Shown in pieces: positions 1 to 9,218 of a DNA stretch of 9,218 bases; the first letter of the stretch is position 1, and each line of letters begins with the position of its first letter. The stretch is from a virus. Taxonomy: Duplodnaviria; Heunggongvirae; Uroviricota; Caudoviricetes. The DNA lies in the IMG/VR virus record IMGVR_UViG_2534681649_000003. The stretch is one strand, 5' to 3'. Below the pieces are notes generated by a model, which saw only the letters and a program-made list of their open reading frames with translations, did not search any database and was not told the DNA's origin. The position numbers were made by a program, and so were the translations under genes.

Positions 1-64
1 TGAGGTAGCCTGAGTTTAACGGACACTCCTTCCTGAAATAGAATGGCATCAGAAGGAGCTAATA

Positions 65-367
65 ATGAGCAGAAAAAACCAACGTTACTCTAAAGAGTTC
101 AAAGCCGAAACTGTCAGAACGGTTCTTGAAAATCAACTTTCGAACAGTGAAGGCGCTTCCCGATTATCCCTTCCTGAAGGCACTTTAGGACAATGGGTTA
201 CCGCCGCCAGAAAAGGGCTCGGTACTCCTGGTTCCCGCACGGTGGCTGAACTGGAATCTGAAATTCTGCAACTGCGTAAGGCGTTAAATGAAGCTCGCCT
301 TGAGCGAGATATATTAAAAAAAGCAACAGCGTATTTTGCACAGGAGTCGCTGAAAAATACGCGTTAA
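65..367 (+). CDS. IS3-family transposase OrfA (HTH DNA-binding subunit), IS600-like
   Basis: 100-aa ORF with the characteristic C-terminal leucine-zipper-like segment (...LQLRKALNEARLERDILKKATAYFA...) ending just after an A7 slippery run; ATG at 65 preceded by GGAG. Confidence 0.9.
   Translation: MSRKNQRYSKEFKAETVRTVLENQLSNSEGASRLSLPEGTLGQWVTAARKGLGTPGSRTVAELESEILQLRKALNEARLERDILKKATAYFAQESLKNTR
316..362 (+). promoter_or_regulatory. Programmed -1 ribosomal frameshift site of IS600: A7 slippery run plus downstream hairpin
   Basis: AAAAAAA at 316-322 (codons TTA AAA AAA GCA in orfA frame) followed 6 nt later by a 9-bp perfect stem GCGTATTTT (329-337) / AAAATACGC (354-362) with a 16-nt loop; orfA stop at 365-367 lies just beyond. 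Confidence 0.75.
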
Positions 368-402
368 TCGAACAATGGCGACAACAATTTCCCATTGAAG
401 CG

Positions 403-1221
403 ATGTGTCAGGTATTTGGTGTATCCAGGAGCGGTTATTACAACTGGGTACAGCATGAACCCTCAGACAGAAAACAAAGTGATGAGCGGCTAAAACTGGA
501 GATTAAGGTGGCACATATCCGCACTCGCGAAACATATGGAACCCGGCGGCTCCAGACGGAGCTGGCAGAGAATGGCATCATCGTTGGTCGTGACCGACTG
601 GCACGTCTTCGTAAGGAGCTAAGGCTACGCTGTAAGCAGAAACGCAAGTTCAGAGCGACTACGAACCCGAACCACAATCTGCCAGTTGCGCCAAATCTGC
701 TGAACCAGACGTTCGCTCCTACAGCACCAAATCAGGTCTGGGTGGCGGACCTGACGTATGTTGCCACACAGGAGGGATGGTTGTACCTCGCTGGCATCAA
801 AGATGTTTATACGTGCGAAATTGTCGGCTACGCCATGGGAGAGCGCATGACAAAAGAGCTGACAGGTAAAGCCCTGTTTATGGCGCTCAGGAGCCAGCGC
901 CCACCTGCCGGGCTAATCCACCACTCTGATCGAGGTTCACAGTACTGCGCATACGATTACCGGGTCATACAGGAGCAGTCTGGTCTGAAAACATCAATGT
1001 CGCGTAAAGGTCACTGTTACGACAACGCTCCGATGGAAAGCTTCTGGGGAACGCTGAAAAATGAGAGCCTGAGCCACTATCGTTTTAATAACCGGGATGA
1101 AGCCATCTCAGTAATACGGGAATACATTGAGATTTTCTACAATCGTCAGCGTCGTCACTCTCGTCTGGGGAATATCTCCCCGGCAGCCTTCAGGGAAAAA
1201 TATCATCAGATGGCTGCTTAA
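403..1221 (+). CDS. IS3-family transposase OrfB (DDE catalytic domain), expressed as OrfAB fusion by -1 frameshift
   Basis: 272-aa ORF in the -1 frame relative to orfA. This frame is open from 304, so a -1 slip at 316-322 fuses OrfA to OrfB. Contains integrase-core motifs (VWVADLTYV..., HHSDRGSQY..., ESFWGTLKNE) typical of IS3-family OrfB. Confidence 0.9.
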   Translation: MCQVFGVSRSGYYNWVQHEPSDRKQSDERLKLEIKVAHIRTRETYGTRRLQTELAENGIIVGRDRLARLRKELRLRCKQKRKFRATTNPNHNLPVAPNLLNQTFAPTAPNQVWVADLTYVATQEGWLYLAGIKDVYTCEIVGYAMGERMTKELTGKALFMALRSQRPPAGLIHHSDRGSQYCAYDYRVIQEQSGLKTSMSRKGHCYDNAPMESFWGTLKNESLSHYRFNNRDEAISVIREYIEIFYNRQRRHSRLGNISPAAFREKYHQMAA

Positions 1222-1261
1222 AAAAAGAACAAATGGTAGTGTCCGCTATTGCCAGTACACC

Positions 1262-2020
1262 TCACTGAGCCGGAGATTCCGGATCAACGGCAATGCTGAC
1301 CACCGTCTCTTCCTGTGGTGGATTCTGTTGCTGGTGGGCGTGAGGCAGCAGCGCAAGATTTTTTGTGCGCTGCTTCAGTATGCTGGTGGCGGTCTGCTCT
1401 CCCGGCACGATGTCGCTTTCACGGTACATTGAGCGGATTTTTTCCGCACGCAACCCCAGCGAACGACGTAATACTGCTTCCGGTAGCGCGTCCGCCACCT
1501 GATTGCGGACCGCCCACCAGGATAATTCAGCCAGAGATAATTCACGCTCCTGCGTACCGCTTATTGCGTGACCGATGACGTCAATCATCCATGCTGACAG
1601 GTTTTGATGAGCAAGTTGCTCGAGTGATTCGGATGTCTGGTCACGCAACTGGTTGTCGCAGTGCCAGCACAACACCATTGCGCCGGTACCATAACGGTGA
1701 ATGACGGTTTCGCTGTGATGATAATCGCCGTGTGGCCACTGGCAGGATTTAATATGGCGCAACAGCCAGTCAGACAATGCACCAGCACCACCAGCAGCAC
1801 GAATCACCCGTGCGTTACTGAAAAACGGCAGCAATGTTTTGTCTTCCACTAGCGGCTGGCGAACGGCAGGAACGACCCCGGACGGCAGATTACGCATGCT
1901 TTTCGGTTCCGGCTCCACCAGTACCCGGGTATTGTGGAATACCGGCATGGATTCACGGCCTGGCTTAAGGACCACCAGCCCGAGTTCCGGAACCAGAACA
2001 GGTCGAAGTAATACCCGCAC
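1262..2020 (-). CDS. Prophage HNH-like protein (tentatively DUF968/YdfU-like), 3'-truncated by IS600; probable pseudogene
   Basis: 252-codon ORF on minus strand whose stop codon (TGA, 1262-1264) is supplied by the last three bases of the IS600 terminus, so the native C-terminus is missing. Contains Cys/His motif CQWPHGDYHH...LCWHCDNQ resembling an HNH/zinc-finger core. GTG start at 2020 directly follows the stop of the upstream ORF. Family name is from memory, not a search. Confidence 0.55.
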   Translation of the reverse strand: MRVLLRPVLVPELGLVVLKPGRESMPVFHNTRVLVEPEPKSMRNLPSGVVPAVRQPLVEDKTLLPFFSNARVIRAAGGAGALSDWLLRHIKSCQWPHGDYHHSETVIHRYGTGAMVLCWHCDNQLRDQTSESLEQLAHQNLSAWMIDVIGHAISGTQERELSLAELSWWAVRNQVADALPEAVLRRSLGLRAEKIRSMYRESDIVPGEQTATSILKQRTKNLALLPHAHQQQNPPQEETVVSIAVDPESPAQ

Positions 2021-2021
2021 A

Positions 2022-2300
2022 TTACCTCCAGATCCGTTGCTGGAATGTGCAGGACGGACGCGGTGGCCGTTCGGAATAAGGGAGCCTGACGAAGATTATC
2101 CAGTGACGATAATCGAGACTGAGGGCTTTCTTAATCTCGTATCCGTGTCTGCGGTAGCGCTGAATCAGCCATTCAGCCTGTTCTTCGGTGCAGGGGTCGT
2201 GCTGATACCAGTCAGATTTGAATGCATGAGAACGCCGCCCGTGCCTGCTGGCAGGCGCGGCAGAGTTATCCGAATTGTAAAATTTGGTATCGTGCGCCAT
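2022..2300 (-). CDS. Small hypothetical prophage protein (92 aa); possibly N-terminal part of, or coupled to, the downstream HNH-like gene
   Basis: ORF with ATG at 2298-2300 but only a weak SD; stop TAA at 2022-2024 lies 1 nt from the GTG of the next ORF. Position downstream of hok parallels the hokD-rem-ydfU order I recall in the K-12 Qin prophage, but the sequence was not recognised directly. Confidence 0.4.
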   Translation of the reverse strand: MAHDTKFYNSDNSAAPASRHGRRSHAFKSDWYQHDPCTEEQAEWLIQRYRRHGYEIKKALSLDYRHWIIFVRLPYSERPPRPSCTFQQRIWR

Positions 2301-2370
2301 CTGTTTTCTCTGCTGGCGCAGCAGGTGCCAGTTGTTCAGGCTGACGGATGGATTGTAAACCAGAACGACC

Positions 2371-2398
2371 AGAAAAACAAAACCCGCCGAAGCGGGTT
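2371..2398 (-). terminator. Rho-independent terminator downstream of hok
   Basis: On minus strand: AACCCGC-TTCG-GCGGGTT (7-bp GC-rich stem, UUCG tetraloop; plus-strand coordinates 2381-2398) followed by TTGTTTTTCT. Confidence 0.8.
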
Positions 2399-2466
2399 AA
2401 GTGCGGGTGCGTTGAGGATGCCTGACACATCAGCGGTGGCGAGGGATTTCTCCCCCGCCGGGTCTC

Positions 2467-2622
2467 TTACTCCTCAGGTTCGTAAGCTGTGAAGACAGCG
2501 ACCTCCGTCTGGCCGGTTCGGATTCGTACCTCGCAGAGGTCTTTCCTCGTTACCAGTGCCGTCACTATGACGGTTAAACAGATGACGATAAGGGCGATTA
2601 ACATCGCCTTTTGCTGCTTCAT
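2467..2622 (-). CDS. hokD: Hok/Gef-family type I toxin (51 aa membrane peptide)
   Basis: Translation MKQQKAMLIALIVICLTVIVTALVTRKDLCEVRIRTGQTEVAVFTAYEPEE has the Hok family signature (single TM helix, ...TRKxLCEVRIRxG..EVAxF.AYE). ATG at 2620-2622 preceded by AAGGAG at 9-nt spacing. Assignment to the HokD/RelF paralogue is from memory of the K-12 sequence; family assignment is firm. The ORF track's 70-aa version starts at an upstream in-frame ATG (2679) with no SD. Confidence 0.85.
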   Translation of the reverse strand: MKQQKAMLIALIVICLTVIVTALVTRKDLCEVRIRTGQTEVAVFTAYEPEE

Positions 2623-2798
2623 AGCCTGCTTCTCCTTGCCTTTCGGCACGTAAGAGGCTAACCTACATGTGTTCAGCATGGATTGAGCCTCAGATTAATG
2701 TTAAGCGTCTTGCAGGACGCGTAGTGTTAACTGGGGCTTTTCTCTATCTGCCTTTTGGTGTTCATGCCTGAGACAGATAGCCTCAAGCACCCGCAGTC

Positions 2799-2826
2799 AT
2801 TCTACTTAACTAAGATTTCCCTGCAA
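2799..2826 (-). promoter_or_regulatory. Predicted sigma70 promoter for the hok mRNA
   Basis: Minus strand -35 TTGCAG (plus 2821-2826), 16-nt spacer, -10 TAGAAT (plus 2799-2804); gives a leader of about 170 nt before the hok start, the length expected for hok mRNAs that carry sok-target and fold-back elements. Confidence 0.4.
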
Positions 2827-2881
2827 ACCGTTTTTGTCCGGCACAGTAAATATCCAACTAAACCAATAGCGTTCGCTGTAT

Positions 2882-3061
2882 TTACCGCCAGTATTCAATG
2901 CACATGACCGCCATGAACACCCCTAAAAAAAGGGCATTTATATGTCCAAACATTAATATCAAAACATCAATTTTTTCCATATACCTTGCTGTGAAGATGA
3001 TGGGCATACATGATGCGAACAACCAGAACGCAACAAACAAAAACTGCAATGCGTTTTTCAT
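2882..3061 (-). CDS. Possible small hydrophobic two-helix membrane protein (59 aa) in AT-rich island
   Basis: ATG at 3059-3061 preceded by AGGGGG with 4-nt spacing; product MKNALQFLFVAFWLFASCMPIIFTARYMEKIDVLILMFGHINALFLGVFMAVMCIEYWR is almost entirely hydrophobic. AT-rich context makes spurious ORFs likely; no homologue recalled. Confidence 0.3.
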   Translation of the reverse strand: MKNALQFLFVAFWLFASCMPIIFTARYMEKIDVLILMFGHINALFLGVFMAVMCIEYWR

Positions 3062-3273
3062 TATTCCCCCTACAATCAATGTGCAATAACATTTAAACAC
3101 ACCTCAATTTGGCCGGACATATAAATATCTAAACCAGAAAAAATCACTTACATAGCGTTACAAACTCTTTAGTCTAAATACTCATCGTAAAACATTCCCC
3201 ATACTTATCAGTCCGTTCCGCGCCAGGTAGCTTATTGCCTTATCTGGCAACCTATAATCAGGTTTCCGCTTTT

Positions 3274-3696
3274 TCAGTTGGCTGGTCGTTTAACCGACAT
3301 AGTTAACCCATTAATCTGGTTGCCGGATGCTGGTGGATTTTCGCGTTTTAGTTGTTCATAAAAGTGCACAGCTTTAACCAGTTCTTCTGATGTAACCGGG
3401 ACTGGTGGGGCAGTGAATAAGGCCTGAATTTCATAGTTCGGCCTGTCGTTACAATCCTCTTTTTTCGGTACATATTTCCAGTCACCAACCCACAACTCCC
3501 CCTGAGAGTCCATAACACCTTTTTTCACGTAGCGATATCGCCACGCTATCGGCTCTGCTTCCAGCGATGCCCGTGCAATTTTGAATAACTCGCCCTCTAC
3601 TCGCGCCATCCCTGAATTGGGGTGGCATTTCGTAATCGCTATTTTTAATTTGGCTTCTTCGATTAATTGTTCTTTTGTTAATTCAGTCATTTTCAT
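3274..3696 (-). CDS. Hypothetical prophage protein (140 aa)
   Basis: Long ORF; preferred start ATG 3694-3696 (MKMTELTKEQ...) with SD AAGGG 5 nt upstream. The ORF-track start at 3729 lies inside the IS1 terminal repeat and is rejected. No family recognised. Confidence 0.75.
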   Translation of the reverse strand: MKMTELTKEQLIEEAKLKIAITKCHPNSGMARVEGELFKIARASLEAEPIAWRYRYVKKGVMDSQGELWVGDWKYVPKKEDCNDRPNYEIQALFTAPPVPVTSEELVKAVHFYEQLKRENPPASGNQINGLTMSVKRPAN

Positions 3697-3706
3697 TACC
3701 GCCCTT

Positions 3707-3715
3707 TCAGGCGGC
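3707..3715. repeat. IS1 target-site duplication, left copy (TCAGGCGGC)
   Basis: Identical 9-bp direct repeat found immediately outside both IS1 ends (3707-3715 and 4484-4492). Confidence 0.9.
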
Positions 3716-3770
3716 GGTAATGCTGCCAACTTACTGATTTAGTGTATGATGGTGATTTTAAGGTGCTTGC

Positions 3771-4046
3771 GTGGCTTCCATTTCCATCAGATGTCCTTCC
3801 TGCTCCGCTACTGAAGGCGTGGTGCGTAACGGCAAAAGCACTGCCGGACATCAGCGCTATCTCTGCTCTCATTGCCGTAAAACATGGCAACTACAGTTCA
3901 CTTACACCGCCTCTCAGCCCGGTACGCACCAGAAAATCATTGATATGGCCATGAATGGCGTCGGATGTCGCGCCAGTGCACGCATTATGGGCGTTGGCCT
4001 CAACACGGTTTTACGTCACTTAAAAAACTCAGGCCGCAGTCGGTAA
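3771..4046 (+). CDS. insA: IS1 InsA (transposition inhibitor / DNA-binding protein)
   Basis: 91-aa product [40 protein letters not shown]... matches IS1 InsA; GTG start; the -1 frameshift motif AAAAAAC (4022-4028) lies near its 3' end. Confidence 0.95.
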
Positions 4047-4072
4047 CCTCGCGCATATAACCGGGCAGTGAT

Positions 4073-4468
4073 GTGATTGTCTGCGCTGAAATGGACGAAC
4101 AGTGGGGCTACGTCGGTGCTAAATCACGTCAGCGCTGGCTGTTTTACGCGTATGACAGGATACGGAGGACGGTTGTGGCGCACGTCTTCGGTGAACGCAC
4201 TCTGGCCACACTGGAGCGTCTTCTGAGCCTGCTGTCGGCCTTTGAGGTCGTGGTATGGATGACGGATGGCTGGCCGCTGTATGAATCACGCCTGAAGGGA
4301 AAGCTGCACGTTATCAGCAAGCGTTACACTCAGCGCATTGAGCGACATAATCTGAATCTGAGACAACATCTGGCAAGGCTGGGACGGAAGTCACTGTCGT
4401 TCTCAAAATCGGTGGAGCTGCATGACAAGGTCATCGGGCATTATCTGAACATAAAACACTATCAGTAA
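4073..4468 (+). CDS. insB: IS1 InsB frame (transposase catalytic part; made as InsAB' fusion by -1 frameshift)
   Basis: Product ...[41 protein letters not shown]... matches IS1 InsB; frame is -1 relative to insA. Confidence 0.9.
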
Positions 4469-4483
4469 GTTGGAGTCATTACC

Positions 4484-4492
4484 TCAGGCGGC
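4484..4492. repeat. IS1 target-site duplication, right copy (TCAGGCGGC)
   Basis: Exact copy of 3707-3715 immediately following the IS1 right end. Confidence 0.9.
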
Positions 4493-4563
4493 CTCCTGAT
4501 GTTCTGAGGGTGCAGAAATCCCTCCGGTTAAGGATTAAATTTTATTTGCTGTGCTAAATTTAA

Positions 4564-5019
4564 TTATTCAGTTTTTATTCCTGCTCTCAAAACAGCCTCT
4601 GCCATTCTGATATCCGGATTTTCTGAAATCATCTTTTCCGGCGAGTCGCAATCACCACCACATTCAGTTATGCGTTCATGACCAAAACGAATTGTGGTTT
4701 TGTGCGCATTAATCATTTGTGTAAGCGCATCTGTCAATTCTGCAATGCGTTTGTCTTTAACTTCCAGCTCTTTCAGTAAAGCCAGTACGTCAGGAGCGCT
4801 AACATCAACGACGGTTACGCGCGATTTCAGGTAATGCTCATCCGCAAAAGTTCGACCAGTTTTAAAATATCCATCATCCCCCTCACCTGTGCAGGCATAC
4901 ACAATATGCGTTCTGGAAAATATGCGCTGTATCGACATTTCATCGCCACAAACAGGACATTCCGGCACCTGAATTGGTGAATAACGTTCACGTAATGCCT
5001 GGTAATTAGTCTTGCACAC
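4564..5019 (-). CDS. Hypothetical prophage protein with N-terminal CxxC zinc-ribbon-like motif (151 aa)
   Basis: ORF with GTG start at 5019 preceded by AGGAG (7-nt spacing); contains CPVCG...C and C-terminal ECGGDC cysteine clusters; start overlaps the stop of the upstream gene by 14 nt. Vaguely resembles Ead/Ea22-type lambdoid accessory proteins from memory; unverified. Confidence 0.7.
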   Translation of the reverse strand: MCKTNYQALRERYSPIQVPECPVCGDEMSIQRIFSRTHIVYACTGEGDDGYFKTGRTFADEHYLKSRVTVVDVSAPDVLALLKELEVKDKRIAELTDALTQMINAHKTTIRFGHERITECGGDCDSPEKMISENPDIRMAEAVLRAGIKTE

Positions 5020-5311
5020 TGGCTGTCTCCTGAAAAATCACCGCATGCCCCAGTTTCTCCGCCAGCGCCAGTTCTGCCTTAGCGCCTGCTGACCGCTGCC
5101 AGCCTTTCAGCATGTAAATCGCATCCACACAACGAATCATCGCCATGCAGATATCCATGTACTGCGGCTGTGTCAGCCCGTCCGGAAGTACTGCCGGGTT
5201 TAAGACGGTATGCCCTTCCCGTTTCAGTTCCTCTTCCGCATTGTGAAACGCCTCACGGTTGAAATTTTTATACCCGGTCATTGGACCGGCGATATAGACT
5301 CTCACCCTCAC
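5006..5311 (-). CDS. DUF4406-family protein (nucleoside 2-deoxyribosyltransferase-like fold), prophage accessory gene
   Basis: 101-aa product MRVRVYIAGPMTGYKNFNREAFHNAEEELKREGHTVLNPA... carries the YIAGPMTG...F..A...L...GH.V.NP signature I associate with DUF4406; GTG start at 5311 preceded by AGGAGG; GTGA start/stop overlap with upstream gene. Confidence 0.8.
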   Translation of the reverse strand: MRVRVYIAGPMTGYKNFNREAFHNAEEELKREGHTVLNPAVLPDGLTQPQYMDICMAMIRCVDAIYMLKGWQRSAGAKAELALAEKLGHAVIFQETASVQD

Positions 5312-5730
5312 GCCATCACCTCCTGAAAATTACCCTGATAAAACGACAATATGCGCTGCATAACTTCGCTCTTCCGGCACTCGCGACAGATTATGTTTAG
5401 GCGACTGTCGTAGCGACGTATTTCTCCGTCAGGTAATGACCAGATAAGGTCCGGATCAACCGCAGATGGTTTCTTCAGCTTTGCCCTTGAGAGCTTTTTA
5501 CGGGCATTTTGCCAGTCCTTACGCGCCTGTTCAGACGGGAATAACCCGTAACCAGAGTTGTATACATCGCCACTGGCAACCAGCTCTCTGGCCAGAACGC
5601 TCATCAGATATCTTGTTGCCCCAGTTTTAGCTTCCAGTTGTCGTAACGTCTCGCGCCCACTCTGGCGTACGAGTTCAAGAACCTGCCCTTTAATTTTTTC
5701 CCGCTCTTCTTGTGTAAAAACTTTTGCCAC
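5308..5730 (-). CDS. Hypothetical prophage protein (140 aa), basic, with C-terminal CxxC pair
   Basis: ORF with GTG start at 5730 preceded by AGGAGG; no family recognised. Occupies the position where lambda P / DnaC-like helicase loaders usually sit but does not resemble them. Confidence 0.75.
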   Translation of the reverse strand: MAKVFTQEEREKIKGQVLELVRQSGRETLRQLEAKTGATRYLMSVLARELVASGDVYNSGYGLFPSEQARKDWQNARKKLSRAKLKKPSAVDPDLIWSLPDGEIRRYDSRLNIICRECRKSEVMQRILSFYQGNFQEVMA

Positions 5731-5770
5731 AAGCCCTCCTGAAAATTACCTCATGACCAGAAATTAACAC

Positions 5771-6841
5771 TTACTCCCTGAAGCCCGGCGGAATTTCGTT
5801 ATCCGGTTCAGAAATATGATTCACACAACGCTGGTTGTTCGTGCCGCTTACCGGGAGCAACCAGGGGTTCTCAAAATTCCGGTCCGGTCCAAAAAACGTC
5901 GTCGCTCGCTGAACAAATTCCGTTCCCGTTTTCCCGGTAGCCGCCAGGTATCTTGCGTAACGCCTCACGCCATCCAGCATGGCCTCTGGTGGCACCCCCT
6001 CGCGTAATCTGGCCTTCCAGGCACTGAAAGCGGATTTCTTCGGGTTTGCCCCGGCACGCAACGGGTACTCCCGCCAGACCTGTTCGAACACATCCGGATA
6101 ATCCACTCGTCCCACAGACTGCCCGGTGTTTTCCGGGACTACCCGATCGGCTTCCCGCTGAATGGCGGAATCGGCTTCAGGCTGCTGCAGTTGGTGTGAT
6201 TGCTCCGGACTTGCGGTCATCGCCTGCTGCACAGCGCCCGAATCGGCTTTCAGCGCATACGCTGAATCGGCTTCCGGTGTCGTGCCTGCTGGCTGACCAG
6301 GATTGACGGTCTGAACATCCCCTGCCTGGTTCGTGGCGTTTTTTACGCCATGGACCATAGTGTTTTGATCTTCTTGATCTGTATCTTTATCTGTATCTTT
6401 ATCTGTCGTGACTCGTCGTGACATGTGCGTGACATATCGTGACGCGCCGTGACAATCGCCATTTTGTTCCCGCTTTCTTTCCCTCTCTCGCTGCGCCCTC
6501 TTGCGCTCTGCAGGAGATTTTGCGGTTTGCGAAATATTGCCGTTGTCCTCTTTCAGCACCTGGCGTTTTTCCCATCCAGTGATTAAATCACCATCAAGTA
6601 CCCGCCCCTGCATCGTCTGCAAAATTGAATCAATTACCTCTTCTGTCACGTCGAGCGCACTTGCCAAATCTTCTGTCGTGACATCAATGTGACCTCGCGT
6701 GACATTTCGTGACGCGCTCACCAGGAGGTGGATATACACTGCCATCACTGTTGCAATTGGCTGCCCTGACACCCTGGCAATTGTTCGCCACTTAGGGTCA
6801 TTTGGCATGTCATGCCATAATCTGAGCCAGGCGTTAGCCAT
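5771..6841 (-). CDS. Putative phage replication initiation protein (lambda O-like position), 356 aa
   Basis: Long ORF directly downstream of the cro-like and YdaT-like genes; preferred start ATG 6839-6841 (MANAWLRLWHDMPNDPKW...) with SD AGAGGTGA. The coding sequence contains phased DNA repeat arrays (see repeat features), as ori-lambda does inside gene O. Functional call is by synteny and repeats, not recognised homology. Confidence 0.75.
   Translation of the reverse strand: MANAWLRLWHDMPNDPKWRTIARVSGQPIATVMAVYIHLLVSASRNVTRGHIDVTTEDLASALDVTEEVIDSILQTMQGRVLDGDLITGWEKRQVLKEDNGNISQTAKSPAERKRAQRERERKREQNGDCHGASRYVTHMSRRVTTDKDTDKDTDQEDQNTMVHGVKNATNQAGDVQTVNPGQPAGTTPEADSAYALKADSGAVQQAMTASPEQSHQLQQPEADSAIQREADRVVPENTGQSVGRVDYPDVFEQVWREYPLRAGANPKKSAFSAWKARLREGVPPEAMLDGVRRYARYLAATGKTGTEFVQRATTFFGPDRNFENPWLLPVSGTNNQRCVNHISEPDNEIPPGFRE
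6146..6273. repeat. Four copies of ATCGGCTT (GAATCGGCTT context) spaced 24/72/24 bp inside the replication gene
   Basis: Copies at 6146, 6170, 6242, 6266; spacing in multiples of 3 and 24, encoding repeated (P)EADS(A) peptide units on the minus strand. Confidence 0.7.
6377..6453. repeat. Candidate origin-type repeat block: tandem 12-bp ATCTGTATCTTT (x2 plus partial) followed by five CGTGAC repeats at 10-11 bp phasing
   Basis: ATCTGTATCTTT at 6377-6388 and 6389-6400; CGTGAC at 6407, 6417, 6428, 6438, 6448 (spacing 10, 11, 10, 10). Two GATC sites lie just upstream (6367-6370, 6376-6379). The repeat is read in all three codon phases (CHG, ASR, YVT, MSR, VT), so it is constrained at the DNA level. 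Confidence 0.6.
6645..6713. repeat. Second phased GTGAC array (four direct copies at 10-11 bp spacing plus one inverted copy)
   Basis: GTGAC at 6678, 6689, 6699, 6709 (spacing 11, 10, 10), each in a TCGTGAC-like context; inverted GTCACG at 6645-6650; TTCTGTC precedes two copies. Confidence 0.6.
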
Positions 6842-6912
6842 ACTCACCTCTTTTGATACCGAATCTTTTTACTCACAAATTGCCGGAAGTGATCCGGTAT
6901 GAATATTGCGAG

Positions 6913-7338
6913 TCAATGCACAGCCACAATATTTCCTGCAGGGCCACCACGATTCATCTGGTTGAAACCAGCGATCGCCACTGCGACAAAATCATCAGCG
7001 TCTCTCACCAGTCGTTCCCGCGTCTCCACTAGTTCCCGAAAATAGGCTGAGCTATGGCTGCGCATTCGGGCCACCAGCAGAGGTGGCATTGCTTTTTCGA
7101 TAGCTGGTAACAACGCCTGAATTTTTTTAAGCGCATCAGGGGTGTCTTTCTCCACCCAGCGGAAAATTTTCTGAGTATTGCGAGCCAGGGCTTCCGGATG
7201 GCTGTCGTCATACAGTTCCGGGAACGTCATTCCCAGCTCGAAATACGCTTTGGTAATTTTCGCAGCCGGTACTTTTTCGCCGTCCGGATGCGCCCAGGCA
7301 TTCATCGCCATGCGGATGTGTTCATGCTTGATTTTCAT
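6913..7338 (-). CDS. YdaT-like (CII-position) prophage regulatory protein, 141 aa
   Basis: Begins MKIKHEHI..., which I recall as the N-terminus of Rac prophage YdaT; sits immediately after the cro-like gene with ATGA start/stop overlap (7335-7338), the position of cII/ydaT in lambdoid early-right operons. Confidence 0.7.
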   Translation of the reverse strand: MKIKHEHIRMAMNAWAHPDGEKVPAAKITKAYFELGMTFPELYDDSHPEALARNTQKIFRWVEKDTPDALKKIQALLPAIEKAMPPLLVARMRSHSSAYFRELVETRERLVRDADDFVAVAIAGFNQMNRGGPAGNIVAVH

Positions 7339-7589
7339 GAATCAACTCCCATCAGCTTTTTCGTAGTAGTTTTATTCCTGCCAATAGTTAAAATTGCATC
7401 GGCAGAAAATAATCCGTTTGATGCAAGAGCGATTTTTTCAGCGTAATTTGTTTCGCCGGTATATTCTGTGCGAGGCAATTTTCCGTTATCCATCCATTTA
7501 TAGATTGCTCTTTGGCTGACACCACAAACGTCGGCCACAACAGCAACGCGAACAGTTTTGATTACATCTTCAAGTGTTTTCTGGTTCAT
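7335..7589 (-). CDS. Cro/YdaS-like small HTH regulator (84 aa)
   Basis: Preferred start ATG 7587-7589 (MNQKTLEDVIKTV...) with SD GAGG 5 nt upstream; HTH-like segment ...VADVCGVSQRAIYKWMDNGKLP...; divergent from the repressor gene. The ORF-track start at 7661 has no SD and overlaps the operator region. Confidence 0.75.
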   Translation of the reverse strand: MNQKTLEDVIKTVRVAVVADVCGVSQRAIYKWMDNGKLPRTEYTGETNYAEKIALASNGLFSADAILTIGRNKTTTKKLMGVDS

Positions 7590-7668
7590 ATCACCCTCAC
7601 AATGTGAACTTTGAGTACATGCTATAACAGAACTGACAGTACATTCAAGAGCGAATATCATTGAACTT
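7590..7668. promoter_or_regulatory. Divergent promoter/operator region (OR-like) between cro-like and repressor genes
   Basis: Plus strand: -35 CTGACA (7633-7638), 17-nt spacer, -10 TATCAT (7656-7661), predicted start at or next to the ATG at 7669 (leaderless repressor mRNA, as for lambda PRM). Minus strand: -35 TTGAAT (plus 7643-7648), 16-nt spacer, -10 TATAGC (plus 7621-7626) for the cro-like gene. Two direct AGTACAT copies (7614-7620, 7638-7644) overlap these elements. Confidence 0.55.
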
Positions 7669-8088
7669 ATGGTTCATGAAGATAAAGCGCGTAAAGAGTT
7701 CGCCAGTAGGCTTGCGCTAGCCTGTGAAAACGCTGGTTATGAACAACATGGAAGGCAGGCAGAAATTGCCCGTCGAATGAAATTAACACCAAAAGCGGTT
7801 AGCAAATGGTTTAATGGCGAAACAATTCCTCGCCGGGAGAAATTAAGGGAATTAGCAACACTAATAGGAACAACACCAACCTATCTTTTGGGAGAGGATA
7901 CAGAAGAAAGTGGACAGGTACGTTTCTATCAGGAGTTAAATCCAAGACAAAAAATCATCATTGACCTTCTGGACGAGCTCCCTGACAGTGAGACAGATGA
8001 ACTTTTAAAAACTCTTGAAGAGAAAAAACAGAAGTACAATGCAATTTACGAAGAGTTAGCACGAAAGAAAAAACAAAAAGCCTCTTAA
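7669..8088 (+). CDS. CI/DicA-like prophage repressor (XRE-family HTH, no S24 peptidase domain), 139 aa
   Basis: HTH_3-type motif ...RQAEIARRMKLTPKAVSKWFNGETIPRREKLRELATLIGTTPTYLLGE...; acidic/basic C-terminal tail but no LexA-like Ala-Gly/Ser-Lys cleavage module; divergent from the cro-like gene; no SD before the ATG. Confidence 0.85.
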   Translation: MVHEDKARKEFASRLALACENAGYEQHGRQAEIARRMKLTPKAVSKWFNGETIPRREKLRELATLIGTTPTYLLGEDTEESGQVRFYQELNPRQKIIIDLLDELPDSETDELLKTLEEKKQKYNAIYEELARKKKQKAS

Positions 8089-8162
8089 ACCAGCATAAAT
8101 CCGGTAGCGCCTTCCTCCGGGTTTGTGCTTCACTTTATCCCATCTCATTTTTTTACACACAA

Positions 8163-8207
8163 AATGTACCATAAGCACTTTACAACAATGAACGCAAAGT
8201 ACATTAT
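8163..8207 (+). promoter_or_regulatory. Predicted OL/PL-like operator-promoter downstream of the repressor gene
   Basis: AGTACATT (8198-8205) is the same 8-mer as in the OR-like region (7638-7645), with an inverted 7/8 copy at 8163-8170; plus-strand -35 TTTACA (8179-8184), 17-nt spacer, -10 CATTAT (8202-8207) overlapping the operator copy. Confidence 0.4.
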
Positions 8208-8385
8208 ATACCTGCCACCCACCCCGCCCCACAGAATGCAGGGCAATACTTCGAGTTACCAGGCAGTGGTCAGGGGTTAAGTAGCCAGCCCGAGGCGTAA
8301 GAACATGACGGCAGGGTTCAACTTTAATAACTATGCAGCAGGTTTTTGTTCCGCTACCCCGGCGTTAAGGGGAAATGAGGTCAGC

Positions 8386-8406
8386 ATGGATACTATCGAT
8401 CTTGGG
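8386..8406 (+). pseudogene. 5' stub of a gene (MDTIDLG) severed by the IS1 insertion
   Basis: ATG at 8386 preceded by GAGG at 6-nt spacing; reading frame runs 7 codons and meets a stop (TAA, 8407-8409) contributed by the IS1 terminal repeat that begins at 8405. Confidence 0.35.
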
Positions 8407-8845
8407 TAATGACTCCAACTTACTGATAGTGTTTTATGTTCAGATAATGCCCGATGACCTTGTCATGCAGCTCCACCGATTTTGAGAACGACAGTGACTT
8501 CCGTCCCAGCCTTGCCAGATGTTGTCTCAGATTCAGATTATGTCGCTCAATGCGCTGAGTGTAACGCTTGCTGATAACGTGCAGCTTTCCCTTCAGGCGT
8601 GATTCATACAGCGGCCAGCCATCCGTCATCCATACCACGACCTCAAAGGCCGACAGCAGGCTCAGAAGACGCTCCAGTGTGGCCAGAGTGCGTTCACCGA
8701 AGACGTGCGCCACAACCGTCCTCCGTATCCTGTCATACGCGTAAAACAGCCAGCGCTGACGTGATTTAGCACCGACGTAGCCCCACTGTTCGTCCATTTC
8801 AGCGCAGACAATCACATCACTGCCCGGTTGTATGCGCGAGGTTAC
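8405..8845 (-). mobile_element. IS1 remnant, inverted relative to the first copy, truncated at IS1 position ~328 by IS2
   Basis: Begins with the IS1 insB-proximal terminal repeat GGTAATGACTCCAACTTACTGAT at 8405; spot-checked segments are identical to the first copy, with one mismatch found (copy 1 position 4058 T vs C here at 8830); IS1 homology stops at 8845, where an IS2 terminus begins. Confidence 0.9.
8420..8815 (-). CDS. insB: IS1 insB frame in truncated copy (no insA, so no functional InsAB' transposase)
   Basis: Protein identical to InsB of the first copy over its length; the ORF-track product extends upstream as an artefactual read-through into the IS2 end. Confidence 0.8.
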
Positions 8846-9218
8846 TGGATTTGCCCCTATATTTCCAGACATCTGTTATCACTTAACCCATTACAAGCCC
8901 GCTGCCGCAGATATTCCCGTGGCGAGCGATAACCCAGCGCACTATGCGGATGCCATTCGTTATAATGCTCGAACGCCTCTGCAAGGTTCTTTGCTGCCGT
9001 TAACCCGTCTGGTTTGGGCATGATACTGATGTAGTCACGCTTTATCGTTTTCACGAAGCTCTCTGCTATTCCGTTACTCTCCGGACTCCGCACCGCCGTG
9101 TTCTTCGGTTCAAGTCCCAACATCCGGGCGAACTGGCGTGTTTCATTAGCCCGGTAGCATGAACCATTATCCGTCAGCCACTCCACTGGAGACGACGGAA
9201 GATCGTTGCCGAAGCGGC
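8846..9218 (-). mobile_element. IS2 right end (partial; continues beyond window)
   Basis: Starts with TGGATTTGCCCCTATATTTCCAGACATCTGTTATCACTTAACC, the reverse complement of the IS2 right terminal repeat as I recall it, followed by the C-terminal coding region of the IS2 transposase. Confidence 0.85.
8857..9218 (-). CDS. insD: IS2 transposase OrfB (InsD) C-terminal portion; N-terminus outside window
   Basis: Translation ...[119 protein letters not shown] matches the IS2 InsD C-terminus; frame is open to the window edge. Confidence 0.85.

Follow-up and report, generated by a model that had tools for sequence, protein, structure and literature searches.

A truncated ydfU-type gene takes its stop codon from IS600 at a probable deletion scar in a degraded Shigella prophage

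The window (the entire 9218-nt stretch of DNA analysed) opens at base 1 of an IS600 element, which is followed by two ORFs on the minus strand, a DUF968 gene of the ydfU type and a small prophage gene (Table 1). Copies annotated as 'IS3-like element IS600 family transposase' cover window 1–1264 completely (coverage 100 %, identity 99.8 %) and share its boundaries (TGAGGTAGCC...ACACCTCA), and at three independent locations on plasmids they are bordered by target duplications of 3 bp. The TG...CA termini (TGAGGTAGCC... and ...GGTGTACACCTCA-type ends), as read from the sequence, carry imperfect inverted repeats of ~27 bp (TGAGGT...ACCTCA) that match at 19/27 positions. An A7 run is located at 316–322, within orfA, and is presumably the −1 frameshift site for an OrfAB fusion, as is general in the IS3 family; a fused product of 385 aa is called for IS600 in loci related to the window. 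With its full-length identity, its imperfect-repeat ends and an HTH-containing orfA with an overlapping DDE/rve orfB and slippery A-run, this region is, by its sequence, a complete IS600.

Table 1. Features at the IS600/DUF968 locus (positions are those of the window)
Feature	Coordinates	Strand	Basis or remark
Complete IS600 (IS3 family)	1..1264	+	1264 bp (canonical length), 99.8 % full-length match to annotated copies
IS600 orfA, 100 aa, HTH_Tnp_1	65..367	+	Pfam and NCBIfam matches
IS600 orfB, 272 aa, DDE/rve transposase core	403..1221	+	NF033516 transpos_IS3 332.8 bits, plus rve, rve_3, rve_2, HTH_21
Truncated ydfU-type DUF968 gene, GTG start, 252 aa	1262..2020	-	Residues 1–252 of 352-aa protein
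TGA stop of truncated DUF968 gene, formed by the final 3 bases of IS600 (+ strand: TCA)	1262..1264	-	ORF list, alignment to intact gene
Conserved 92-aa prophage gene, PHROG 1212 (unknown function)	2022..2300	-	PHROG E = 1e-33
GGAGG, predicted Shine-Dalgarno of DUF968 gene, 4 nt before GTG, inside last codons of 92-aa gene	2025..2029	-	Read from sequence

The closest well-known counterpart of the truncated gene is ydfU of the E. coli K-12 Qin cryptic prophage (b1560, 349 aa), a DUF968 gene whose product belongs to His-Me finger group 7 (PMC5714182) and which shows 86 % ungapped nucleotide identity over window 1270–2317. The order hokD, 92-aa ORF, ydfU is common to both, a single nucleotide separates the two ORFs in each, and the ydfU-type gene begins with GTG in both; Q follows ydfU in K-12. 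Position thus identifies the window gene as a ydfU orthologue in a lambdoid nin region (hok/sok, 92-aa ORF, DUF968, rusA, Q); the upstream side of this neighbourhood is present in the window, while rusA and Q occur in intact relatives and appear to be deleted here. Unlike K-12 YdfU, the window copy breaks off after residue 252 and has no HNH module.

A complete 352-aa version of the gene is found in the intact ipaH-carrying prophage of E. coli FDAARGOS_944 (NZ_CP065613.1, 622–661 kb), which has two ISEc60 insertions of its own. Homology to this gene begins at window 1264/1265 (nucleotide identity 99.6 %); hence, the TGA stop is the reverse complement of the TCA at the end of IS600. The window protein differs from residues 1–252 of its intact counterpart at a single position (L224, where the intact protein has P). 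It ends ...DPESPAQ*; from there the FDAARGOS_944 protein goes on YLQRQKPQ..., so that the lost C-terminal part amounts to 100 residues (YLQRQKPQREEMPVYTRWVKTQKCMTCGNQ...GVLKWKA), coded by the gene's 3′-terminal 302 nt (YLQRQKPQ...KWKA). The alignment confirms, at the level of sequence, what the initial annotation had proposed, namely that the ORF runs to the IS600 boundary, is truncated there and takes its stop from the IS terminus. A natural end of the protein at this position, which that annotation had named as grounds for dropping its reading, is at odds with the 352 aa of the intact homologue; in the homologue search, complete relatives were mostly 348–354 aa, with greater lengths attributable to a different start call or a duplication, and shorter entries bearing a source name were mostly labelled partial. 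Reading into this end of IS600 gives an immediate stop in one of the three frames, a stop after five codons in the second and one after 14 in the third; an in-frame stop is therefore a one-in-three event without special meaning.

The position of the cut determines what the remnant retains. IS600 sits after codon 252, in the linker that connects the conserved first 250 residues with a C-terminal His-Me (HNH) zinc-finger module. The window protein matched Pfam DUF968 (PF06147) at 60.9 bits (cut-off 27.8) over profile positions 1–76 of 171 only, and PHROG 96 'HNH endonuclease' over positions 1–236 of 334; its intact homologue matched DUF968 at 213.8 bits over profile positions 1–169 and additionally HNHc_6 (31.8 bits, cut-off 26.6, residues 267–328), with weak HNH and HNH_5 matches at 276–324. 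The zinc-finger motif CMTC...HH...CRKCH falls within residues 267–328 and lies wholly in the lost 100 residues, a placement with which the assignment of DUF968/YdfU to His-Me finger group 7 is consistent (PMC5714182). The Pfam search of the 252-aa protein returned no HNHc_6, HNH or HNH_5 match, and no NCBIfam profile matched either this remnant or the 92-aa protein. A retained CQWP..HH..CWHCD stretch bears marginal similarity to the lost finger (BLASTP E = 0.052 over 39 residues), a non-significant match when it was considered as a possible degenerate duplicate of that finger. YbcO of prophage DLP12 (DUF1364, PDB 3g27), placed in the same His-Me group 7 (PMC5714182), is a 96-residue stand-alone finger whose comparable part is what the window gene has lost; it aligns weakly with residues 287–319 of the intact homologue (E = 0.37), and a sequence search of solved structures returned marginal matches only (3g27, E = 0.37; McrA, E = 0.93). 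The label 'HNH-like' originally given to the ORF therefore stands for the family (Pfam DUF968, PHROG 96, His-Me finger group 7) and fails for the remnant, which by sequence is without any HNH residue.

The missing HNH motif suggests that the 252-aa remnant is a non-functional pseudogene. The opposing reading, that it is a functional, selected short form comprising the N-terminal and Orf-like parts with no nuclease, could appeal to a cut at most two codons from where the conserved N-terminal part gives way to the exchangeable HNH module, to the intact ORF, start and Shine-Dalgarno, and to a near-identical allele kept in several Shigella assemblies. The exact 252-aa protein occurs on 49 contigs (names given: S. 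boydii, S. flexneri) and is deposited as ABB65625.1 ('hypothetical bacteriophage protein') of S. boydii Sb227 (CP000036), with the same IS600 junction. However, recent common descent (99.9 % DNA identity) explains this conservation among strains, the surrounding prophage is heavily degraded (it carries IS1, IS2 and IS600 and has lost 23 kb), and the lengths of the complete relatives do not favour a short form, which we regard as extremely unlikely. An AlphaFold2 model of the remnant, built with 19 homologues (89–97 % identical), was too poor to support a fold search (mean pLDDT 39.3, pTM 0.27).

The module boundary is itself a mosaic joint. Two divergent HNH-module alleles (~50 % nucleotide identity) are joined to the conserved N-terminal 250 codons at a fixed linker, K-12 and locus L003 carrying the allele alternative to that of locus L001. 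The IS600 insertion point is 5 nt from this joint, and a small palindrome, CCGGAGATTCCGG (window 1270–1282), adjoins it. It is nonetheless highly improbable that the linker is a preferred site for recombination and IS600 targeting, with the 252-aa product persisting as a nuclease-less DNA-binding protein.

Upstream of the truncated gene, a single base (2021) separates the TAA of the 92-aa ORF from the GTG (2020–2018) of the DUF968 ORF. This spacing and the different frames led the initial annotation to suggest that the two might be a single gene interrupted by a frameshift at 2021, an idea to which we now attach next to no probability. The TAA-N-GTG arrangement is the same in all five homologous loci examined (L001–L003, K-12 Qin and L017), although these span DNA identities down to 86 % (K-12) and protein identities down to 66 % (L017). 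The small protein has a family of its own (PHROG 1212), its homologues form 154 clusters, most of 90–92 aa, and none of these clusters contains a fusion to DUF968. Mismatches between the 92-aa ORF and K-12 are distributed 10/13/27 over the codon positions, with enrichment at the third position of its own frame, and the other two frames across this stretch contain two and four stops. The GGAGG preceding the DUF968 GTG, which also speaks for a separate start, is kept in K-12. Long DUF968 homologues (375–411 aa) were considered as candidate fusions and discarded, as their extra length comes from internal tandem duplications or from a start called further upstream in frame with DUF968. By the evidence of its homologues, the 92-aa ORF is a conserved gene in its own right, and its translation is probably coupled to that of the DUF968 gene. 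The K-12 MG1655 record examined has no annotation for it.

As the window starts at IS600 base 1, the state of its left flank is read from 99.9 % identical relatives. The IS600/DUF968 junction was present in identical form in ten Shigella assemblies, including S. boydii Sb227, and absent from 5426 complete E. coli genomes. Sb227 DNA is 99.9 % identical to the window over 1–8845, where the two part, the window's IS2 end replacing the rest of an IS1. In seven of the ten assemblies, the IRL end of IS600 is joined to a 3′ fragment of a baseplate J gene, its final 176 nt (...CCCCTCTGGCACAC on the IRL side); in the other three, it borders int-proximal sequence after an IS600–IS600 inversion. The flanks in these relatives read ...CTCTGGCACAC-IS600-CTGAGCC..., with CAC against CTG and no 3-bp duplication; across all ten assemblies, the triplets are CAC or CCC versus CTG, and the two halves of one gene do not flank the element. 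The initial annotation had placed the lost C-terminus beyond the other end of IS600, together with an IS3-family target duplication; neither is seen in the relatives that share the junction, and we infer from these assemblies that the C-terminus does not lie there. Two observations count against extending the relatives' left flank to this strain: three of the ten differ on that side, and this strain departs from all ten at 8845 (IS2 present), so that its left side could differ too.

Comparison of Sb227 with FDAARGOS_944 shows what the junction replaced. Gene order is the same, and identity is high on both sides of the Shigella IS600: 99.4 % up to position 18095 of locus L014 (inside baseplate J/gp47) and 99.8 % from position 41222 (inside DUF968). 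The two Sb227 flanks match colinearly and share one strand, and L014 18096–41221 (23,126 bp) is absent. The missing ~23 kb comprises the DUF968 tail, rusA, Q, tRNAs, lysis, terminase, head and tail genes and most of the baseplate; FDAARGOS_944, unlike the Shigella locus, possesses the complete DUF968 gene and the 23.1 kb running from rusA via Q, lysis, head and tail to the baseplate.

These data make it very probable that this region is a deletion scar bounded by IS600, within a degraded lambdoid prophage (ipaH type) of a genome like that of Shigella boydii. The IS600 end, reading 5′-TGA on the gene strand and in frame by chance, ends the ORF at the first IS base, and the other end, as in the relatives, would be joined to the last 176 nt of baseplate J without target duplication, ~23 kb having been lost. 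A simple IS600 insertion would instead place the gene's 3′ 302 nt and a CTG duplication directly past the IRL end, so that ...GGAGATACTG (...GGCGCTGGAGATACTG) would stand 5′ of window position 1, with HNH-module coding sequence further upstream. The window's own left flank is outside view and IS600 normally generates 3-bp duplications, both of which suit such an insertion, but in each of the ten assemblies that share the right junction, the IRL meets baseplate J or int-proximal DNA without duplication, and the predicted reciprocal junction was absent from the 5426 E. coli genomes, genome_contigs and metagenome_contigs, leaving a simple insertion very unlikely.

The search for reciprocal junctions (DUF968 3′ part–IRL; IRR–rest of baseplate J) yielded no place covering both halves in the 5426 E. 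coli genomes and no exact match in genome_contigs, nor, for the DUF968 junction only, in metagenome_contigs; no simple insertion intermediate in DUF968 or baseplate J was thus found in these collections. The deletion may have arisen by recombination of two directly oriented IS600 copies or by intramolecular transposition of IS600. The lack of intermediates in these searches would also suit a deletion that came first by another mechanism and was followed by insertion of IS600 exactly at the joint. This sequence of events would require the element to land precisely on a pre-existing joint and, as a later simple insertion, should have left a 3-bp direct repeat, whereas the flanks are CAC and CTG; moreover, IS600–IS600 recombination is demonstrably active at the locus. 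We consider it most improbable, and retain the IS600-bounded deletion scar as our reading of the locus.

Such a scar is an ordinary, already known kind of IS-driven decay in Shigella. Five insertion sequences, IS600 among them, have expanded in every Shigella species; they interrupt genes and give rise to deletions and inter-copy rearrangements (Hawkey et al. 2020, PMC7373316). The window-type locus exhibits all three effects (disruption, deletion and rearrangement) and is a typical instance that differs in nothing from this picture: one more case of IS600 gene disruption with a large bounded deletion, in a process described at population scale. Its value is mainly one of annotation, in that the DUF968 ORF would be treated as a pseudogene remnant, the prophage as defective and the 92-aa ORF as a real, separate gene. 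As modest by-products, the analysis points to a 92-aa gene missing from the K-12 MG1655 annotation and to a DUF968 HNH module that is exchangeable at a fixed linker.

Window positions 1–1264 comprise a complete IS600, which aligns end to end (100 % coverage, 99.8 % identity) with reference copies labelled 'IS3-like element IS600 family transposase' from Shigella boydii and Escherichia coli plasmids. Its ends (TGAGGTAGCC...ACACCTCA) are identical in four plasmid copies at three independent sites, where the 3-bp direct repeats CCA, TAG and GTA surround the element. For the adjoining sequence (window 1265–2400), 4377 complete E. coli genome records covered at least 80 % of the query, and the matched stretch was labelled 'DUF968 domain-containing protein | hypothetical protein' in the 30 records listed. 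The best record was E. coli FDAARGOS_944 (99.6 % identity), in which a 352-aa DUF968 gene is followed by rusA and Q. Local alignment places the start of homology to the intact gene at window 1264/1265, the exact IS600 end, and the window protein matches intact residues 1–252 but for one substitution (L224 versus P), terminating in ...DPESPAQ where the intact protein proceeds YLQRQKPQREEMPVYTRWVKTQKCMTCGNQADDPHHIIGHG...LCRKCHNELH.... IS600 interrupts the DUF968 gene and supplies its stop codon, and the HNH module is absent; alignment to the intact 352-aa gene hence bears out the initial annotation, which had placed an IS600-truncated HNH-family gene at these coordinates with its stop in the IS terminus. 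The in-frame stop is itself unremarkable, as one of the three frames reading into the IS600 end stops at once, the others running for 5 and 14 codons. This is an ordinary feature and has been known before. An identical 252-aa protein is deposited as ABB65625.1 from S. boydii Sb227, is also recorded from S. flexneri and was seen on 49 contigs.

Coordinates of features in the window and of the paired IS600 copies in related loci
Feature	Position	Strand	Basis or remark
IS600 orfA	65–367		HTH_Tnp_1
A7 run in IS600	316–322		
IS600 orfB	403–1221		rve; NF033516, 332.8 bits
Truncated DUF968 ORF	GTG at 2020 to TGA (complement of TCA 1262–1264)	minus	
GGAGG	4 nt upstream of DUF968 GTG		within final codons of small gene
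hokD-type type I toxin gene	2467–2792	minus	Pfam HOK_GEF, E = 3e-23
sok antitoxin RNA	2617–2792		Rfam, 115.6 bits
Complete IS1	3716–4483		9-bp direct repeat TCAGGCGGC at its ends
Partial IS1	8405–8845		interrupted by IS2 end
IS2 end	8846–9218		100 % identical to F plasmid IS2
Inverted IS600 pair (Shigella loci L004, L010, L011)	3712–4975 and 10757–12020		CCC target duplication split between hybrid copies

DUF968 proteins combine an Orf-like N-terminal part with a C-terminal zinc-finger HNH motif (PMC4118853); published work assigns them, along with Qin YdfU and DLP12 YbcO (PDB 3g27), to the His-Me finger superfamily (group 7), and RusA and Q are typical neighbours (PMC5714182). K-12 ydfU shares 86 % DNA identity with window 1270–2317, ungapped. 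Pfam recognises DUF968 in the intact protein (213.8 bits, residues 160–344) as well as HNHc_6 (31.8 bits against a cut-off of 26.6, residues 267–328), with weak HNH and HNH_5 matches at residues 276–324, and PHROG 96 'HNH endonuclease' spans the whole protein (E = 5e-165). The window protein retains only DUF968 profile positions 1–76 of 171 and returned no HNH-type match in the profile search. The earlier label 'HNH-like' is therefore apt for the family, but the catalytic finger is exactly the part lost. A retained Cys/His stretch shows marginal similarity to this finger (E = 0.052), and an AlphaFold2 model of the remnant has a mean pLDDT of 39.3. Elsewhere in the family, DUF968 proteins P0136, P0198 and P0217 (411, 379 and 393 aa) carry internal tandem duplications of 27–60 residues, which could be real or assembly artefacts.

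Across intact alleles (gene alignment of L001, L002, L003, K-12 and the distant locus L017), the first ~250 codons share 80–100 % DNA identity, while the HNH module occurs in two forms with only ~50 % DNA identity to each other. The switch between modules is fixed, directly after ...GATCCGGA(A/G)TC(T/A)CCGG, and IS600 lies 5 nt beyond it, making the truncation domain-precise; we regard this precision as coincidence. The palindrome CCGGAGATTCCGG (within window 1265–1285) adjoins the module joint.

The 92-aa ORF upstream had been proposed to form a single frameshifted gene with the truncated ORF, but homologues show two separate conserved genes. The small gene has its own CDS in the annotated intact loci L001–L003, with the one-base gap kept, and an intact homologue lies between ydfU and rem in K-12 MG1655 Qin (NC_000913.3; positions 4307–4585 of our extract L015, minus strand), where the junction reads TAA-C-GTG versus TAA-T-GTG in the window. 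The RefSeq record NC_000913.3 carries no annotation of this homologue. Even in L017, whose homologue is only 66 % identical, the small gene stops at 3273 and its 349-aa DUF968 neighbour starts at 3275. A database search returned 154 clusters at 63–89 % identity, mostly of 90–92 aa, none of them (0/154) fused to DUF968; the family is PHROG 1212 (E = 1e-33). Long DUF968 entries (375–411 aa) were considered as fusions and rejected: either the start is called upstream, in frame with DUF968, or the protein is internally duplicated. In the small gene's own frame, mismatches between the window and K-12 number 10, 13 and 27 at codon positions 1, 2 and 3, and both other frames contain stops. The placement of GGAGG is usual for translational coupling, suggesting from sequence that the small gene may be coupled to the DUF968 gene. 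As in the window, a hokD-type gene lies directly upstream of the small gene in K-12 Qin. In another E. coli assembly (L016, 3001–3778), the small-gene homologue measures just 85 aa, with an IS transposase orfA (HTH_Tnp_1) directly behind it; the same gene pair is struck there by a different IS.

As the first base of the window is also the first base of IS600, its own left flank is out of view, and the far side of the element was read from relatives: ten Shigella assemblies with the exact protein, each taken with 10-kb flanks. Six matched window 1–8845 as a single block (99.91–99.94 %), and a seventh, L009, matched at 99.8–99.9 % without the complete IS1, this empty site indicating a simple, more recent IS1 insertion. 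All ten diverge from the window at 8845, and the IS2 joint at 8845/8846 was found in none of them (0/10). In the seven assemblies, ...CCCCTCTGGCACAC meets the left IS600 end and CTGAGCC... the right; the flanking triplets (CAC versus CTG) are not a duplication. Alignment to the 49.5-kb FDAARGOS_944 stretch (L014) identifies the left flank as the 3′ end of a baseplate J/gp47 gene. Sb227 follows L014 up to 18095 (99.4 %), which reduces the 1083-nt baseplate J gene to 176 nt, and again from 41222, within DUF968 (99.8 %), in the order and strand of the intact prophage. The 23,126 bp between these points are missing from Sb227; they hold the DUF968 tail, rusA, Q, four tRNAs, lysis genes, an HNH endonuclease, terminase, portal, head, tail and tape measure genes and most of the baseplate, along with two ISEc60 insertions peculiar to FDAARGOS_944. 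In the nearest relatives, IS600 joins two distant points of one prophage without a target duplication. The lost C-terminus, which had been expected beyond the other IS600 end, is instead very probably deleted, with baseplate J or int-proximal DNA there in the ten relatives.

The int-proximal flank belongs to the DUF968-side IS600 of L004, L010 and L011, where the baseplate J fragment adjoins a second, inverted IS600; the exchanged flanks and the split CCC show that recombination between IS600 copies inverted a prophage segment. In the Shigella locus L007, a called 74-aa ORF (11972–12196) begins within the left IS600 end and extends into the baseplate J fragment; it is a hybrid created by the IS600 joint. 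The near-intact, ipaH-bearing prophage of FDAARGOS_944 (NZ_CP065613.1, 622–661 kb) is 99.4–99.8 % identical to the Shigella remnant, and the strain's 261-kb IncF plasmid (NZ_CP065614.1) has nine IS600 matches; this 'E. coli' resembles enteroinvasive E. coli or a Shigella-like strain.

Among complete E. coli genomes the DUF968–IS600 junction was found in none, and the reciprocal junctions expected of simple insertions turned up neither in these genomes nor in the contig collections searched. The deletion probably arose by one of two routes, and the data fit either: homologous recombination between an IS600 copy in DUF968 and a second, directly oriented copy in baseplate J, or intramolecular transposition by a single copy. 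Most simply, the remnant is a pseudogene, in a prophage that would lack antitermination, lysis, all head and most tail genes, and the scar agrees with the IS600 expansion and IS-mediated deletion known in Shigella (PMC7373316).
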